A stretch of 43,082 bases of DNA from Promethearchaeota archaeon (GTDB lineage Archaea; Asgardarchaeota; Lokiarchaeia; Sigyniarchaeales; SOKP01): assembly GCA_048938025.1 (NCBI GenBank), contig JBHLMP010000033.1:1-43082 (forward strand). The letters run 5' to 3'. The translations under genes and the position numbers were made by a program. Positions 28,505 through 38,054 of this stretch are shown here, piece after piece (within the stretch, counting starts at the first letter, position 1; each line of letters begins with the position of its first letter). The notes below the pieces were generated by a model that was not told the origin of the DNA, did not search any database, and was given only the letters and a program-made list of their open reading frames with translations.

Positions 28505-31456
28505 TTGACAAGCCTAACATTAGATACAAAAAAAATTGAAAGCCTAATTTTAAAAGGTCTTTATGAAAAAGCAGCTGAAGAAATATTTAATTTAATAGAT
28601 AATTATCAAATTCATCATGATAAAGAACTAATATATAAGAGCCTTAGTTTATTAAATCTAATTTGTGATAAATCTCCTTCTATTTCTTTAAGAACCGTTA
28701 AAACCATTGCTATATTTATTAATGAAATTGATTCTTGGATTAGATTAGTATCTTTAGAGATATTATATCAAGTTAGCATGTTTAGACCTAATCTATTAAT
28801 TGATTTAATTGATAGAATAAGAGCACGTTTATATGATCAGGAACCTTCTGTAAGAAGATTAACTGTAAGGATCATTGGAAATTTAATTCTTTCCTTGCAT
28901 ATAGATATAGAAGAATTACAAGATATTATTGAAGAATACACTGAAAAATTGATGGATAATGATTGGAAAGTAAAATTAAATGTAATTAAAACCATTCAAA
29001 GAATCCTAAATCAAGATTATAAAAAAATTAGAGATTTAGAACCATTATTATCAATGGTTATAGTAAATCTAAGGGATGAAGATGATGATGTAGCAAGAGC
29101 AGCTGCTGAACTGTTAAAGATTCATGGGTCATATTTTCTTTCTAAGGAAAAATTATTTTATGTTCTTTTAAATCTTCTATATAATGAACAAAATAGAGTT
29201 AAAGAATTAATCATATGGTTATTTGGAGAAATTGGAAAAGAAAAATCATCAGAAATTATTTCAATTATTCCCAAATTAATAAATCTATTAAAAGAAGAAG
29301 ATTATCGTATTGAATTAAAAGTAATTGAAGCACTAGTCAACATAGCAGAAAATAATTTTGATCAAATCTGGGCAAATTTAATAGATTTATTGTTGAATTC
29401 AAGCAATTCTGATTATAGAAACTCATTAATAAATGCAATATATCATTTAAGTCAAAATAATATTAATATTATTTTTCCTTATTTATTTGAGGAATTAGAG
29501 AACCCATCTGAAAATATAAGAGAAGGAATTGCTTTAGTGTTTAAACGATTATTTGAAGAGTACCAAATAGAAATAGAAAATGAAATAACGAAAATGTTAT
29601 ATAATTTAGAATCACGATATTGGAGAGAAAGAGAAAAGACGATACTATTACTTCAGAATATCTGTTTCATATTAAAAAGTAAAAAAATTGCTGTTTGGGT
29701 TACTATTGAATTAGAAAGAGCTTTAAAATATGAAAAAGATCCTGAGGTAAAAGATGAAATAATTTATGCTTTAGAAAATATCAGGAAAAACTTTAGCGAT
29801 ATTGGTACAACTATTCAAAAAATCAATCATGAATTAATATTCTTTCATAAAAAAATTAAGAGTTTTCAAAGAATTCCCGCTCAATTTAGAGAAAAATTAA
29901 ATTCTTATATAAATAATTTCAAATTTAATGATACTGAAATTCAGTTAAATAAGAAATACAGGAGAATTTTAAAAAAAATAAAGAAATTTCATAAAACAAT
30001 TAATAAATTTGAATATAAAAGATTAGCTTTTGATTTAATTGAAGAATGGGAAGAAACTAAAGTTCAAATTATAGAAGAACTAAGTATAATAAAAAATTTT
30101 ATATCTGAAATATGTGAAGAAAAAAAAGCTGAATTTATTACAGATCTAAAATCAAAAATTAAGTTGCTAGAGGACCGTATCGTGGTTTTAAAAACACAAT
30201 TTGATTATATTAAAAATTATGAATTTCGTTTAAATTTAGATGCTTCCATATCAAATATTAAACTAAGTAATGAAGAAAATGAAAGATTCACAGATATTAC
30301 ACAAATAAGAAAAAGTTTATTTAAACTGGACAGTGATATAAGAGAGATTTTAGTAAACAACGTAGAATTCAACGAAATATTTAAAGATTTATTAAGAAAA
30401 TGGGTTGAAACAAAAATTGAAATACAAGAATATTTAAGCGATTTAGATCGGCAAATTAAGCAAATGAAAGATAAAATTATAAATTATTTTTTGCATATTG
30501 AATCAGTCAGTGATATTGCTGAAGAAGAAAGAATTAATGGAATAAGTAGTGAACTTGGGTTTCAGCTTCTTCAAGGACATATACATTCTATCATTTCTCA
30601 AGGAATTGAAGGTTTCAAGAAGATTAATGATAATTTTTCTAAATTGAACTTTAAATTAGAATTTTTAATTAAAAAAGGTGAATTTTCAGATGCTAAGAAG
30701 TTAATTGAGATGAATTCTTCTCAAGTTCAAAATTTTATAGAAGAAAGTGAAAAACAGATCGAAAATATTGTAGGTAAGGAAAAAATTTTTGAAGACAATA
30801 ATGTGTTTAATTTGTACGTTAGACCGTATATCAACAAATTTAATGCTTCAAAAGAATTACTCATAAACAAATTAAAAAATTTTATTGAAAGAAGTAACAA
30901 CAAATTATATCTTAATCAGATTAAACATTATTTGAAAATTATAAACCCTATTAAATTAGACTTACTGTCTTCATATGTAGGATTGGAGATAGAGAAATTA
31001 AAAGAATTATTACTAAAATTTATTAACAAAAATAAAATTAATGCAAATATTATAAATGATGAACTTTATTCACAGCAAATTGAGGCGGATATAGCTTCCT
31101 CTATTGAACTTCTCTTTTTCAAAAATATTAAAACTATTGGAAATAAAATTTATTTAAATTTCAAGTTAACCAATCCTTCAAATTTTGACTTTCAAGATTT
31201 ACAATTATCATTAAAAGTTCCTTCTTATATAGATTTCCAGAAAAAAGAAAGCTTTCCTAAATTTCTCCAATTAAATCAATTAAACCCTGGAAAAGTTTTC
31301 AAATTTAATTATGTGTTAAAAGTTGATAAACAAAAAGAACAAAAGAAGAATTTGTTCGATCCCACAGCTGATGAGATTAAATTGGATTTATACTACAAGG
31401 ATCAATTTAATATAACAAGAAAAACGACAAAAAATATTGATCTTTTATTGCATTAA
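28505..31456 (+). CDS. HEAT-repeat protein with coiled coil, PCI-like winged helix and C-terminal Ig-like domain
   Basis: HEAT motifs LYDQEPSVRR, LMDNDWKVK, LRDEDDDVAR; IKLDLLSSYVGLEIEKLKELLLKFINKNKINANI; beta-rich C-terminus. Confidence 0.8.
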   Translation: MTSLTLDTKKIESLILKGLYEKAAEEIFNLIDNYQIHHDKELIYKSLSLLNLICDKSPSISLRTVKTIAIFINEIDSWIRLVSLEILYQVSMFRPNLLIDLIDRIRARLYDQEPSVRRLTVRIIGNLILSLHIDIEELQDIIEEYTEKLMDNDWKVKLNVIKTIQRILNQDYKKIRDLEPLLSMVIVNLRDEDDDVARAAAELLKIHGSYFLSKEKLFYVLLNLLYNEQNRVKELIIWLFGEIGKEKSSEIISIIPKLINLLKEEDYRIELKVIEALVNIAENNFDQIWANLIDLLLNSSNSDYRNSLINAIYHLSQNNINIIFPYLFEELENPSENIREGIALVFKRLFEEYQIEIENEITKMLYNLESRYWREREKTILLLQNICFILKSKKIAVWVTIELERALKYEKDPEVKDEIIYALENIRKNFSDIGTTIQKINHELIFFHKKIKSFQRIPAQFREKLNSYINNFKFNDTEIQLNKKYRRILKKIKKFHKTINKFEYKRLAFDLIEEWEETKVQIIEELSIIKNFISEICEEKKAEFITDLKSKIKLLEDRIVVLKTQFDYIKNYEFRLNLDASISNIKLSNEENERFTDITQIRKSLFKLDSDIREILVNNVEFNEIFKDLLRKWVETKIEIQEYLSDLDRQIKQMKDKIINYFLHIESVSDIAEEERINGISSELGFQLLQGHIHSIISQGIEGFKKINDNFSKLNFKLEFLIKKGEFSDAKKLIEMNSSQVQNFIEESEKQIENIVGKEKIFEDNNVFNLYVRPYINKFNASKELLINKLKNFIERSNNKLYLNQIKHYLKIINPIKLDLLSSYVGLEIEKLKELLLKFINKNKINANIINDELYSQQIEADIASSIELLFFKNIKTIGNKIYLNFKLTNPSNFDFQDLQLSLKVPSYIDFQKKESFPKFLQLNQLNPGKVFKFNYVLKVDKQKEQKKNLFDPTADEIKLDLYYKDQFNITRKTTKNIDLLLH

Positions 31457-31544
31457 TAATAATTTATATCAAAAATATAGCAAAATATAACTATTTTTAA
31501 CTATATCTATCGAAGAATTTAATATTTATTACGAAAATATTAAT

Positions 31545-31554
31545 ATATCGATAT
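31545..31554. promoter_or_regulatory. Palindrome ATATCGATAT upstream of selD1
   Basis: Same palindrome upstream of selD2. Confidence 0.4.
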
Positions 31555-31617
31555 TTCTCTTTGGTACTAACTAGATTAAGGTTTAAAAAATGTATAATAA
31601 CTAATTTGAGGTGAAAA

Positions 31618-32646
31618 ATGCAAGAATTAGAGCGTTATAGACTAACGCAACAGGTTAAATTGTTCGGTTGAAACTGTAAACTAAACGCCAAGAAACTAGA
31701 CACACTTCTTGAGGGGACTGGCTTAAAAGGAGAAATAGAAGACTCTGCGATTATCCCTGTTCCCAATACGGATTTAGTCATGGTTAAAAATATTGACATA
31801 TTCACGCCTATACTTGATGAGCCTGATATTATGGGAGAAATCGCTGCCGCTAATGTAACTAACGATGTATTTGCTCTAAATGTTCCTATTATATCGGGAA
31901 TGTTGGTTTTTCTAGCAATAAACACAAAAACCCCCCTAGAAATCGCTGAAGGCCTATTAAAGGGGATAAAAAGGTTTATGGAACAAAAATTAAATTCTAA
32001 AGTCCTTGGTGGTCATACTATCTATGCTCAATGGCCATTAATTGGTGGCGAAGCAAGTGGTATTGTGAAAAAAGCTCATATTATTAAGAAAAATTATGTG
32101 AAACTCGGAGATGAAATAATACTGACAAAACCTATTGGAAATCAATCTGTAATGGCGGCTTATAGATTACAAAAAAATAGACCTGATCTCCTAGAACATT
32201 ATTCTAATAGTGAAATCGATACTGCAATTGAACTCGCAGTAGAACTAATGATAGAACCTTTACAAGATGTTGTGAAAACGATACATACTTATTCCGATTT
32301 CTCATTTGTCCACTCTATGACTGATGTAAGTGGATTTGGTTTAGCTGGGCACCTAAAGGAGATGCTTCAGAACTCTCATTTATCAGCAATAATAAAAAAA
32401 ATACCTTATATACGATTAGCAAAAGAGTTAGCATATGATTTTGGTTATAAATTCGATGCGTGCTTAATGCCAGAGACTGCTGGAGGAATGCTCCTCTCGG
32501 TTGATCATGAATACGCAGAAGAGTTTTCAGATAGACTGGCTCTTAATGGAGTTAAAAATTGGATTGTTGGAGAAATCGATAAAATAAAGCCAAAACTCGT
32601 TAGAGTTTCCGAGAATGTAGAACATGTTGAAATACAAAAAATTTAA
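31618..32646 (+). CDS. selD: Selenophosphate synthetase, selenoprotein (UGA=Sec at 31669-31671)
   Basis: GAGGTGA RBS, MQELERYRLTQQVKLFG-U-NCKL in frame with ORF 31780; DIFTP, NDVFA, GGHT, LTKPIG, TDVSGFGLAGHL, ETAGG; SECIS downstream. Confidence 0.93.
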
Positions 32647-32718
32647 TGATGTCGATGAAATAAACTAAAACATATTATTGTGGTTGTTTATTGAGAATTC
32701 TGTTGCGAAACAGCATCA
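32647..32718 (+). ncRNA. Eukaryote-type SECIS element of selD1
   Basis: TGATG/CATCA outer helix; AUGA 32655; AATAAAC/GTTTATT; AAA; CATA/TGTG minihelix; GA 32693; CTGTT-GCGA-AACAG hairpin. Confidence 0.88.
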
Positions 32719-32850
32719 ATAAAAATCGAATAGTTTTAAGTTTTTTTTGTTTTAGAATTTATGATTTGGAATAAATATAATTGAGTTGGTTTTTTTATAT
32801 TTTAGATCAATAACATATTCTCTGATAAGGAATAATATTATTTATCGAAA

Positions 32851-32860
32851 ATATCGATAT
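32851..32860. promoter_or_regulatory. Palindrome ATATCGATAT upstream of selD2
   Basis: Overlaps TATCGA-N5-TCGATA (32843-32859). Confidence 0.4.
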
Positions 32861-32951
32861 ATAAAATCTAAAATTTTAATAAATAATATAAATTCACATT
32901 ATTATTAAATTATTAATAGGATTAGAAAAACTAGTAAACGTGAGGTGAAAT

Positions 32952-33980
32952 ATGAAAAAAGAGCCAGAATATAGATTAACAAAGGCTGTCAAAATCTTTG
33001 GATGATCCTGTAAAATGAGTTCTAATGATTTAGTGGATCTACTAAAGAAAACGGGTTTGAGTGGAGAATTTGAAGATGCTGCGATAATACCAATTCCTAA
33101 ATCTGATATGGTAATGGTTAAAAATATCGATATTTTTACTCCTATTGTTGACGAACCAGAAATTATGGGAGAAATCGCTGCTTGTAACGTCACTAATGAT
33201 GTGTATGCGATGAATGTTCCTGAAATTTCTGGAATGTTAGTTTTCTTAGGAATAAACACTAATACTCCTATGGAAATTGCTGAAGGATTACTTAAAGGAA
33301 TAAGCAATTTTATACACAAAAAAATATATTCCAAAGTTGTAGGTGGTCATACAATATACAGTGAATGGCCCTTAATAGGAGGTACTGCCACTGGATTTGT
33401 TGAAAGAAATGCTATTATACATAAATATGGAGTAAAGAGAGGAGATAATCTTATATTGACAAAACCAATAGGATTACAACCTGTAATGGCTGCCTATAGG
33501 TTACTAAAGGATATTCCTGAAATGTTAGAAAGTTATTCTGAAAAGCAACTTAGGAAATCAATTAAACTTGCTATTAAGATTATGACTACATCAAATCAGA
33601 ATGTTGTAAAAACAATTCACTCATATAAAGATTTTTCATTTATCCATGCGATGACTGATGTGACTGGATTTGGTCTTGCTGGTCATTTATTAGAAATGCT
33701 TCAAAATTCTAATTTATCTGCGGTTATTGAAACTATTCCATCAATAAAACTTTCAGAACGTTTATCTATTGATTTAGGTTATGCTTTCGATGAATGTAAA
33801 TGTTCTGAGACTGCGGGTGGTATGCTAATGGCTGTTGATCCACATTATACTGAAGAATTTTCTAATACTCTTTCTAGCAATGGTATTTCGAATTGGATTG
33901 TAGGAAAAATAGATACAGTTGCTCCTGGGCTAGTTAGGATTTCACAAAATATTGAAAATATTGAAATTTCTAAATATTAA
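32952..33980 (+). CDS. selD: Selenophosphate synthetase paralogue, selenoprotein (UGA=Sec at 33003-33005)
   Basis: GAGGTGA RBS, MKKEPEYRLTKAVKIFG-U-SCKM in frame with ORF 33015; same SelD motifs; SECIS downstream. Confidence 0.93.
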
Positions 33981-34052
33981 TGATGTTGATGAAATAGGCT
34001 GAAACACAATTAGTGGTTGCTTATTGAGAGTTCCACATGCAAAGTGGCATCA
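33981..34052 (+). ncRNA. Eukaryote-type SECIS element of selD2
   Basis: TGATG/CATCA; AUGA 33989; AATAGGC/GCTTATT; AAA; CAC/GTG; GA 34026; CCAC-AT-GCAA-A-GTGG hairpin. Confidence 0.88.
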
Positions 34053-35726: not shown

Positions 35727-38054
35727 ATGCGAAATATGGAGTCTCCGCCTTCTAAAAAAAAATTTATCGGAGCTCTAATATTATTAGCTCTTGGGTTTGC
35801 TTTGATACCGACTGGTTTTCTGCTTAATGATTTTATTCAAACTGAAATTGATAAAGGTATTGCAAATGAAATTCGAATACCTGAACCAGATGACTCAAGT
35901 TATGATGAGTGGATATCAAATGATTATCCAAGTGCCATTCCTATGTACAGAAAATTTTATATGTGGAATTTAACTAATCCTAATGAGTTTCTTATGGGAA
36001 AGAAACCAGAGCTTGAAGAAGTTGGTCCTTATACTTTCCGGGAATATACAACAAAATATAATGTGAGTTATAGTGCCAAAATGGATGAGGTAACCTATAA
36101 ACAATACCCAACATATATATTTCAGCCTGATATGTCTGCTCCCTTATGTTCTCTTGATGATAATATTATAAACGTAAATCCTGCTTATTTAGGAGTTCTG
36201 GAATTAGCGGGAAATGAGGAAAATCTAATTAAAGCCATGTTTCCAACTGTTCTTTCAGAAGTAAAAACCCTATTTGGAGAAGAATTAACTGTAACTTTAG
36301 GAGAACTTTTAACTAATGATGGAATTTATAACATGCTCGTAGGGGCTTTGTCTGACATACTTAGCGATTTATTTTCTGGACTTCTTGGTGATGAGGCTAC
36401 AAACCTAACTGCTACATGGATAGTTGATTTTCTTACTACATACATCGTACCGTTAGAAGATCTGGTAGAATTTATGGATGATGCAATGCCTAGTGCTGAA
36501 GCAATTTTCTTTGCGGAATGGGCAAATGATTATTTTCCTGAAGTTCAAGTGGATTTATCTATTTTATTTAGACATATATTAGAAGTAATAAGCGATCTTG
36601 TTGATTTTATTATTGATCTCATTTTCTTTTGGGATGTTTTACACTTATTTGATGCTATTAAGGATGCTCTGCATGAAGAACTTATGAACATGTTTGAAGA
36701 GTTATTTACTGAATCTCCACTAGCAGAGTTAATTGGAGGACTCTTTGCTGATTTGATCCGAAGCCTGGGTGCTAAAATGGTTGATGAGGAAGGTAGCGAA
36801 ACGGGTGAAGGAGTTGATCTGGATGGTCGAGAACCCTATAATTTCCCAGGCCCAAGTTCTGATTTGAATATCATTAATCGTAGTGAAGCTGGTGAGTCTG
36901 GAGTCACTCAGGAGCAATGTCAGGCTCTTTGGGATCAGAACAACCCAAACTCACTTCTTGGTATGGATGTACAGGTTAATCCAATATGGTTTGAAGCATT
37001 AGCAGGAATTGAAGAAAGTAAAATATTCTTAATGAATGCATTTTGTTTAAATGAAACTCAACTAGATTTAATTTTGAATTGGATTGATACGAGTTTAAAT
37101 GGATGGCTCAAAAATATCTGTGAATATTCGATAAAAGATTGGAATAGCGGTTTACTTACTACTCGTACTGTCGAAGAATGGCTCTTCACAGCTGTGGATA
37201 ATTTAGTAAATATCCAAGATCCGAACGAAGCTAAAGTAGGAATTTTTGACAATTGTTTTTCTGAAGCTGAAGCAGAAGCTAAGGGTATGAAAAATTTCAC
37301 TATAAATACAGGTAAATATGATATTAATAAAGTCTGCGATACTGTTAAATATAACGGTGAGACAGTTATTGCTGTTTGGGAAGAAGATGAAATTGTTCGA
37401 GGTACAGCGGGTACTCAATTTGCCCCGAGGGTTTCAAAAAATAACCCTCTTTATGTTTTCATTACTGATTTATTAAGAACAGTAGAGATTATCTATACTG
37501 AAACTACGAGTATTTACGATATTGAATTATATAGGTTCGAAATATCAGAGGAGACCTTTAAAGTTAATCCAAAATACTACCAATCAATTGAAGGGGTAGC
37601 TAACATGACAGTTGATCAAGGAATTCCTGCTTTCTTAAGTAAACCTCATTTTCTTAATGCAAGTAGCTATATGAAAGAGGCTGTAAATGGTTTAAATCCC
37701 AATAAGCTACAACATGATACTTATCTTGATATTGAACCTTTAACGGGCGCTACAATGAATGCGGCTGAAAGAATACAAATTAATTTTTTGGTTAATCAAA
37801 CTGATATATGGTATAAAAATTGCTGGGAAGGCATAATGCCTATTCTTTGGCTTGAATTTGGTGGACAAATAACAGAAAATCTAGCAAATAAATTCAAAAA
37901 TTTGGTTTATACCGCTCAAAATCTAAGTGAAAATCTATTTTATAGCTGTATTGGTATTGGGGCTACCCTCATTATTCCTGGTGCGATTTTTACAACAACA
38001 CAGAATAGAAAGCGATTAAACGTTAAAAAACAAAAATTATCACAAACTGTTTAA
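35727..38054 (+). CDS. CD36/SCARB (LIMP-2/SR-B) family membrane protein with large helical insertion
   Basis: N- and C-terminal TMs; FYMWNLTNP.E...G.KP.LEEVGPYTFRE; NTG..DI; GT.GTQF.P; LSKPHFL; GL.P...H.TYLDIEPLTG....A..RIQIN. Confidence 0.88.
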   Translation: MRNMESPPSKKKFIGALILLALGFALIPTGFLLNDFIQTEIDKGIANEIRIPEPDDSSYDEWISNDYPSAIPMYRKFYMWNLTNPNEFLMGKKPELEEVGPYTFREYTTKYNVSYSAKMDEVTYKQYPTYIFQPDMSAPLCSLDDNIINVNPAYLGVLELAGNEENLIKAMFPTVLSEVKTLFGEELTVTLGELLTNDGIYNMLVGALSDILSDLFSGLLGDEATNLTATWIVDFLTTYIVPLEDLVEFMDDAMPSAEAIFFAEWANDYFPEVQVDLSILFRHILEVISDLVDFIIDLIFFWDVLHLFDAIKDALHEELMNMFEELFTESPLAELIGGLFADLIRSLGAKMVDEEGSETGEGVDLDGREPYNFPGPSSDLNIINRSEAGESGVTQEQCQALWDQNNPNSLLGMDVQVNPIWFEALAGIEESKIFLMNAFCLNETQLDLILNWIDTSLNGWLKNICEYSIKDWNSGLLTTRTVEEWLFTAVDNLVNIQDPNEAKVGIFDNCFSEAEAEAKGMKNFTINTGKYDINKVCDTVKYNGETVIAVWEEDEIVRGTAGTQFAPRVSKNNPLYVFITDLLRTVEIIYTETTSIYDIELYRFEISEETFKVNPKYYQSIEGVANMTVDQGIPAFLSKPHFLNASSYMKEAVNGLNPNKLQHDTYLDIEPLTGATMNAAERIQINFLVNQTDIWYKNCWEGIMPILWLEFGGQITENLANKFKNLVYTAQNLSENLFYSCIGIGATLIIPGAIFTTTQNRKRLNVKKQKLSQTV

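Follow-up and report, generated by a model that had tools for sequence, protein, structure and literature searches.

Why would an archaeon keep two selD genes side by side, when SelD, the maker of the selenium donor, itself needs selenocysteine (Sec)? The question is raised by a stretch of 43,082 nucleotides, called the window below, that covers positions 1 to 43,082 of contig JBHLMP010000033.1 in the Promethearchaeota archaeon assembly GCA_048938025.1 (Lokiarchaeia; Sigyniarchaeales). The host genome is 3.52 Mb in size, lies on 88 contigs and is 96.7% complete. With moderate confidence we interpret the pair as two genuine selD genes from an old tandem duplication within one Lokiarchaeia-type family, in which the downstream copy, selD-B, would be the housekeeping gene and the upstream copy, selD-A, a derived accessory isozyme.

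The two genes lie 305 nt apart on one contig and are the only selD genes in the whole genome. Each is 1029 nt long and has an in-frame TGA as codon 18, within the motif G-U-N-C-K in selD-A and G-U-S-C-K in selD-B (U, Sec). Their features are as follows:

31608-31614, plus strand: ribosome-binding site GAGGTGA of selD-A, read from the sequence; the same motif precedes nearly all selD genes of relatives
31618-32646, plus strand: selD-A, the derived paralogue (class A, GUNCK), 342 codons and TAA; Sec TGA at 31669-31671; TIGR00476 score 172.9 bits
32942-32948, plus strand: ribosome-binding site GAGGTGA of selD-B, read from the sequence
32952-33980, plus strand: selD-B, the ancestral copy (class B, GUSCK), 342 codons and TAA; Sec TGA at 33003-33005; TIGR00476 score 198 bits

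These coordinates, the GAGGTGA sites, the codon-18 TGA and the peptides CLMPETAGG and CKCSETAGG, by which an initial annotation told the two proteins apart, all proved exact. The proteins are identical at 215 of 341 positions (63%), with no gaps. Both exceed the curated cut-off of 125 bits for TIGR00476, the NCBIfam model of selD, and both carry the AIR-synthase-like N- and C-terminal domains AIRS and AIRS_C (PF00586 and PF02769) above the gathering threshold. The narrower selD model NF010705 is just missed (255.1 bits for SelD-A and 287.9 bits for SelD-B, against a cut-off of 291 bits). The nearest solved chains for both proteins are SelD or SPS1 entries, namely 9hjt, 3fd5, 5l16, 3u0o and 2yye. 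In the alignment with Escherichia coli SelD (chain 3u0o), U18 and K21 of both copies fall on C17 and K20, and D42, D60, N79, D83 and D236, again present in both, fall on D51, D68, N87, D91 and D227; we take these E. coli residues to be the catalytic and metal-ATP-binding ones. Both genes are thus selD genes of the Sec type, as had been proposed from the letters alone, since both pass the TIGR00476 cut-off and both have TGA aligned with the catalytic Cys.

An open reading frame (ORF) finder run with translation table 11 sees the locus differently. It gives only the shorter frames 31780-32646 and 33015-33980, as if each TGA were a true stop and translation began at ATG 31780 and ATG 33015. The comparison with relatives speaks against this. 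In all relatives the protein sequence encoded by the 17 codons before the TGA is conserved, and the codon-18 column of 127 selD genes from relatives holds TGA in 124 and a Cys codon in none. The three other cases are two interrupted genes, described below, and one gene cut by a contig end.

The genome also holds the machinery to read such codons. It encodes SepSecS (484.3 bits, cut-off 224.85), an EFSec/SelB-type elongation factor (243.7 bits, cut-off 242.25), a PSTK-like kinase gene and a tRNA-Sec with a UCA anticodon. The tRNA gene is directly beside SepSecS and about 3 kb from EFSec:

L007:1501-1617 (contig C48 of the host genome), minus strand: tRNA-Sec (UCA), match to the Rfam model

Its T-loop contains a 31-nt insert, which matches the 31-nt T-loop intron that the text of Mariotti et al. 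2016 (PMC4989117) describes for the tRNA-Sec of Lokiarchaeota. ARAGORN reported no tRNA in the window or near SepSecS, with its intron option included. The initial annotation had asked for selB, tRNA-Sec and SepSecS in the genome and for Cys or Sec at the UGA position of homologues; the former are present and the latter is seen, as TGA, in 124 of the 127 genes. Other selenium-trait markers, selU and yqeB, were not found in the 96.7%-complete genome, so Sec synthesis is the sole known selenium trait for SelD to feed. We infer that each codon-18 UGA is read as Sec by the tRNA-Sec/EFSec system of this genome and that both products are probably active, making selenophosphate for SepSecS.

Immediately behind each gene lies a Sec insertion sequence (SECIS) element in the 3' untranslated region (3' UTR), as the initial annotation had noted:

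32647-32718, plus strand: SECIS of selD-A, 72 nt, supported by covariation over 100 elements; 87.7 bits with covariance model R1
Its parts, plus strand: basal helix 32647-32651 with 32714-32718; AUGA 32655-32658; helix II 32659-32665 with 32686-32692; apical mini-stem; GA 32693-32694; 3' hairpin 32700-32713
33981-34052, plus strand: SECIS of selD-B, 72 nt, with the same architecture; AUGA 33989-33992; GA 34026-34027; 3' hairpin 34033-34047; 90.9 bits with R1

In both genes the basal helix opens at the first base past the TAA, and it ends at 32718 in selD-A and at 34052 in selD-B, the latter being the end point given by the initial annotation. The two 3' regions are 84% identical and their differences include compensatory changes. 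Of 113 such regions in the family, 100 were aligned, a motif filter having removed 13 (nine with a different element and four core variants). A four-helix model has 94.4% of the alignment cells paired, compared with 26-52% when the 3' partners are slid, and none of 500 shuffles reached the observed values. Changes on both sides of the pair are found in 17 of the 20 pairs. From the base upward, the element consists of the basal helix, the AUGA...GA core, a 7-bp helix II, an A-rich internal loop and a 3-bp mini-stem; all three pairs of this mini-stem (helix 3) show changes on both sides and 97.2% of its cells are paired. Between the GA and the basal helix the 3' strand forms a fourth hairpin, and since this hairpin co-varies as well (five of five pairs change on both sides), each selD SECIS is a three-way junction. 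None of the 100 elements departs from the UGA of AUGA or from the A of the 3' GA, and conservation is at least 90% for the A before this UGA, for the G of the 3' GA and for the AAA run. When the whole genome was searched with R1, only the two selD elements stood out, at 90.9 and 87.7 bits (both belong to its training set), followed by a match of 22 bits. Minimum-free-energy folding of a single element is not significant by itself (z about -1.1), so the structure rests on covariation.

At gathering scores, Rfam matched no family anywhere in the window, its curated SECIS models included. Judged by layout, the selD elements are like eukaryotic SECIS elements; judged by the Rfam models, they are not members. 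They correspond to the selD-specific element of Lokiarchaeota ('SPS lokiSECIS'), which the text of Mariotti et al. 2016 (PMC4989117) describes as a type II-like element of the 3' UTR with an AUGA...GA core, a loop with an A-rich start and an extra apical stem, and we predict that here they direct Sec insertion. The selD SECIS elements are mainly of type II according to the main text of Huang et al. 2024 (PMC11227280). The 3'-side hairpin finds no mention in the passages of Mariotti et al. 2016 (PMC4989117) that were consulted. Nine single-copy selD genes of the family have another 3' element (L079, L080, L082 and L083 in g6; L099, L100 and L101 in g7; L103 in g8; L105 in g12). It lies about 90 nt past the selD stop, where AUGA leads into a 9-bp stem with an A-rich loop of 11 nt whose last bases are AG, followed by GA. 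These nine elements resemble the general type I lokiSECIS of Mariotti et al. 2016 (PMC4989117), indicating that the type of SECIS has been swapped within the family.

Two classes of selD can be told apart among the relatives. Class A is always the upstream copy; its motif is GUNCK in 27 and GUDCK in two of the 29 uninterrupted genes, and its N-terminus before the motif is conserved. The TGA is kept by every one of the 29 class-A genes in the 124-gene tree set that are full-length and uninterrupted. Genes of class B lie downstream and carry GUSCK. Every genus of the family that bears selD has this class, which is the sole form in the genera without class A and in each of the 12 outgroup genes. 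In a sample of 101 genomes of the family, 92 have selD, and at least two selD matches occur only in the genera g1 (19 of 31 genomes, the host genome G000 included) and g2 (14 of 31); none of the 39 genomes from the other eleven genera has two copies. All 54 genomes of g1 divide into 38 with two copies, ten with one and six with none. A phylum-wide sample of 301 genomes contains selD in 153, and outside the family two matches were seen only in G162 and G248. In our interpretation selD-B is the ancestral, indispensable housekeeping copy and selD-A an accessory isozyme, conserved where it is present and yet dispensable.

The arrangement of the pair is fixed. All 29 same-contig pairs that were extracted have A before B on the same strand, as do 19 further g1 pairs judged by their coordinates. 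Of the 38 two-copy g1 genomes, 37 have both genes on the same contig. The pair of G095 is split between the ends of two contigs. The spacer measures 219-766 nt in 24 of the 29 pairs and 1.7-2.2 kb in the other five. In four of the latter (G050, G079, G084 and G070) a gene of the HGD-D family (PF06050) stands on the same strand between selD-A and selD-B. The one in G079 (L120:1657-2952) encodes a 430-aa member of this family (2-hydroxyacyl-CoA dehydratase D component; PF06050, E 1.7e-114); the host genome has only distant homologues of it elsewhere, with 26-32% identity. The fifth long spacer, in G014, holds an unrelated 472-aa ORF.

The duplication is old. In a quick maximum-likelihood tree of 124 full-length proteins, class A forms one clade of 31 rows with a support of 99 by the approximate likelihood ratio test (SH-aLRT) and a stem of 0.39 substitutions per site; in a 75-row subset its support is 100. 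This clade is nested in the family clade (SH-aLRT 99, stem 1.27). The A and B subtrees repeat the same sub-clades (G000, G011 and G046, for instance, are together in both), a pattern that fits co-inheritance of A and B without gene conversion. Between A and B of one genome, nonsynonymous divergence (dN) is 0.27-0.32 and synonymous divergence (dS) is saturated. For each class the dN/dS ratio was estimated by pairwise NG86 over the same 55 genome pairs, out of 325, with dS of 0.05-1.5. The median is 0.078 for A and 0.096 for B, and A exceeds B in 13 of the 55 pairs. The low ratios indicate that both copies are maintained by selection. The initial annotation had called the pair an old, retained duplication, and the phylogeny and dN/dS checks that were run bear this out: A and B fall into different clades, that of A takes in two genera, and purifying selection acts on both copies.

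It follows that the pair is hardly an artefact. Such a view would hold that selD-A is a decaying duplicate or the trace of a strain mixture, or that the TGA is a true stop, as in the shorter frames mentioned above. Huang et al. 2024 (PMC11227280) do caution in their main text that metagenome-assembled genomes can mix strains. Nevertheless, the two copies are 305 nt apart on one contig, the one-contig arrangement recurs in nearly all two-copy g1 genomes, and dN/dS is about 0.08-0.10 in both. The pre-TGA codons are conserved as protein, the TGA falls in the alignment on the catalytic Cys of the E. coli enzyme, and the SECIS co-varies. We therefore give this view very little credence. The narrower statement that the pair is no assembly duplicate, made earlier from the divergence of the proteins, stands on the same grounds, with copies on one contig that are 63% identical, fall into separate clades and are both under purifying selection.

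What distinguishes the two proteins can be narrowed to a few positions. Seven columns differ between the classes and reach at least 90% conservation in each of them (A numbering, A/B): 15 L/I, 19 N/S, 43 S/A, 87 L/M, 215 L/N, 233 S/A and 238 S/T. At 43, 87, 233 and 238, B has the residue that is aligned in E. coli SelD, and the human SPS1 chain matches B at 87, 233 and 238 and has Thr at 43. By this comparison A is the derived copy at these four sites. Neither class agrees with the solved chains at 15 and 19, and 215 is in a gapped stretch that is not reliably aligned. Four of the seven sites adjoin Sec18, D42 or D236.

These sites bear on the idea that selD-A has been neofunctionalised, that is, that it no longer serves Sec synthesis and instead feeds another selenium or sulfur donor or has a regulatory role, as an analogue of SPS1 that has retained its Sec. 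Four of the class-specific sites being next to catalytic positions, and B keeping the E. coli residue at four sites (three of which are also those of human SPS1), agree with such a change. So do the long stem of the A clade and a constraint on A at least equal to that on B, as expected for a copy with its own function; a new function was also raised as a possibility in the main text of Huang et al. 2024 (PMC11227280). On the other hand, A has lost neither its Sec nor any of the aligned catalytic residues, and most of the replacements are conservative (A/S, T/S, M/L, I/L). The genome has no other selenium-trait marker, selU or yqeB, that A could be tied to. The neighbouring genes are unrelated to selenium as well: upstream, a 983-aa HEAT-repeat protein is encoded, and downstream, on the opposite strand, lies a gene with a MoCF_biosynth domain. 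On this evidence neofunctionalisation seems rather unlikely. It is most likely that selD-A adds to the supply of selenophosphate or tunes it conditionally, and does not do a different job.

A further reason for keeping two genes together could be an A/B heterodimer, which the initial annotation had raised beside possible subfunctionalisation. SelD works as a dimer, in which the N-terminal loop of one subunit extends to the site of the other. The strict adjacency and the A-then-B order of all pairs would suit a heterodimer, and no well-assembled locus with A only was seen; the lone A-only genome, G066, has its gene on a truncated contig. B, however, stands alone in eleven genera, in ten g1 genomes and in G085, and it is missing from no well-assembled selD locus, while A has been lost repeatedly. 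G085 is a close relative, its B being 88% identical to that of the window. It has no selD-A, and the 3' end of its HEAT-repeat gene joins the promoter region of selD-B. The junction (L128:1-400, compared with window positions 31211-31515 and 32840 onward) falls on a short repeat found upstream of both window genes, and it looks like a clean deletion of selD-A of about 1.3 kb. An obligate A/B heterodimer is unlikely, and for B it is excluded, because B occurs without A in most genera and in G085. That dimerisation keeps the pair together at all we consider quite improbable, also because each gene has a promoter-like region and a SECIS of its own, an arrangement by which equal dosage is not enforced.

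These regions can be placed as follows:

31532-31548, plus strand: putative promoter motif of selD-A, like a B recognition element (BRE) and TATA box; an A-rich box followed by a TTAATATA-like sequence, about 65-85 nt before the ATG, in 28 class-A upstream regions
32741-32748, plus strand: run of eight Ts past the SECIS of selD-A, a possible archaeal terminator; T-rich runs also follow the element in relatives
32845-32866, plus strand: AT-rich promoter-like stretch of selD-B, a weaker candidate; a similar 'ATCGAAAA...TATA' is found upstream of many class-B genes

The 'ATCGAAAA...TATA' short repeat upstream of selD-B is also what marks the deletion junction of G085. As each gene has its own promoter-like box and its own SECIS, and a T run follows the SECIS of selD-A, the pair would constitute two separate units of transcription and recoding. 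Each gene would thus be expressed with its own Shine-Dalgarno sequence and 3'-UTR SECIS and probably from its own promoter. The conserved BRE/TATA-like box of class A could be used to map a promoter or a regulator site.

Some observations weigh against our interpretation of the pair as a housekeeping gene and its derived accessory isozyme. Two parts of the Sec machinery score low. The PSTK-like kinase gene, at 139.4 bits, is below its curated cut-off, and the tRNA-Sec, at 34.6 bits, is below the Rfam gathering score of 47, in its case because of the 31-nt insert in the T-loop. In the maximum-likelihood tree, A is not the sister of the B genes of g1 and g2 and the backbone is unresolved; a topology joining A with these B genes would be the most parsimonious history and is not rejected (p-AU 0.159). 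The class-specific replacements near Sec18, D42 and D236 may have altered the substrate or the kinetics of A. Lastly, A is absent from ten of the 48 selD-bearing g1 genomes and from about half of g2. Since it is missing or deleted in these relatives, its contribution is not essential.

The two interrupted class-A genes among the relatives, both outside the window, deserve separate treatment. In G021 and G081 (two of the 38 class-A genes of g1), and likewise in the metagenome contig L140, selD-A is split at the same place by an insert of 31 nt:

L033:1474-1504 (G021): 31-nt insert in selD-A
L043:1477-1507 (G081): 31-nt insert in selD-A
L140:4754-4784 (metagenome contig): 31-nt insert in selD-A

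The insert follows the TGA and one further base and so divides the Asn codon. Removal of exactly 31 nt restores ...FGUNCK... and an open frame of 344 codons in G021 and G081, and of 125 codons up to the contig end in L140. No more than 13-17 of the 31 positions are common to the inserts, and the restored genes of G021 and G081 have a dN/dS of 0.066 at a dS of 1.26. An old insert in a gene that is still under selection argues for removal at the RNA level. The shape sought was a bulge-helix-bulge, with a central helix of 4 bp, two 3-nt bulges that contain the splice sites and an adjoining helix, and the insert site can adopt it. Over the three sequences, every one of the 12 cells of the central helix is paired and one pair shows changes on both sides, which is weak covariation. 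In the same three sequences the inner helix has 73% of its cells paired, compared with 67-74% for registers slid by 3, and the outer exon-exon helix is weak. The shape is stable, with free energies of -6.0 and -5.0 kcal/mol, and yet suboptimal, as the minimum-free-energy fold of the insert region is different. On these grounds the insert is probably a real mRNA intron, a candidate of the tRNA type; the rival reading is that these selD-A genes are pseudogenes. Translational bypassing was also considered and rejected, as reading by eye gave no matching take-off and landing codon in G081. Of the three matches of a pattern scan of metagenomes, two, L138 and L139, were unrelated chance matches. Among the matches listed in a literature search there was no report of such an insert.

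In a bolder account selD-A is no spare and is a functionally distinct Sec enzyme. It would either pair with B in mixed dimers whose kinetics are altered, or act as an isozyme for a different donor of selenium or sulfur. The seven class-specific replacements speak for this account, in that B has the E. coli residue at four of them (43, 87, 233 and 238) and several adjoin the catalytic Sec and Asp residues. In some lineages expression of selD-A would moreover depend on tRNA-type splicing of the 31-nt intron, situated exactly at the Sec codon. We think this improbable. If it were true, mRNA splicing would be seen for the first time in Asgard archaea, and the making of selenoproteins would be linked to the same splicing machinery for tRNAs by which tRNA-Sec is matured.

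Multi-copy selD and the selD type of SECIS in Loki-type archaea have been published before. Mariotti et al. 2016 (PMC4989117) described a Sec-containing SelD, its SECIS and the tRNA-Sec intron in Lokiarchaeota, and our genes share with theirs the UGA at the catalytic site, the AUGA...GA SECIS with an apical stem in the 3' UTR and the T-loop intron in tRNA-Sec. As far as its text goes, that study had a gene fragment and metagenome genes, with the Sec machinery, SPS included, in single copy, whereas here there are two diverged tandem paralogues. Huang, Xiao, Zhang et al. (2024, ISME J, PMC11227280) state in the main text that 51 organisms of Loki- and Thorarchaeia have two or more selD genes, and they suggest higher activity or a novel function as possible meanings of the additional copies, with the same caution about mixed assemblies. 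The word 'tandem' does not occur in that main text; its Table S3 and Fig. S3 may already show pairs. Compared with that survey, what is added here is the position of both copies on one contig in a fixed order, the two classes (GU[N/D]CK and GUSCK) with their different distributions, selection measured for each class and thus a derived copy seen to be constrained, and the repeated loss of that copy.

A eukaryotic parallel is SPS1/SPS2. In the duplications that gave rise to these, the derived copy reportedly loses its Sec or Cys together with the selenophosphate function. The archaeal pair is similar in having one conservative and one derived copy, but here both keep Sec, the aligned catalytic residues and a SECIS. 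A paralogue without Sec or Cys, as in SPS1/SPS2, is therefore not found at this locus, where TGA is in both copies. The hdrA-frhD (VhuD) selenoprotein pairs of Asgard archaea and Methanococcales, so far as the sources describe them, are alike in being adjacent on the same strand. They have very short spacers and one SECIS behind the second gene, in contrast to the 305-nt spacer and the one SECIS per gene of the selD pair.

Elsewhere in the window, positions 35727-38054 (plus strand) encode a 775-aa protein that strongly matches the CD36 family (PF01130, E 3.2e-99). The CD36 family is best known from eukaryotes. The matches listed in a literature search for CD36 together with Asgard and archaea were all off-topic.

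As a discovery the tandem pair is incremental, and a less ordinary lead is offered by the relatives, with their candidate mRNA intron at the Sec codon. What the pair does establish is that, being on one contig, the published 'two or more selD genes' are real paralogues and not mixed strains. In an enzyme that makes the selenium donor and itself needs Sec, an ancestral copy and a copy that would be a derived accessory can now be separated and compared biochemically.

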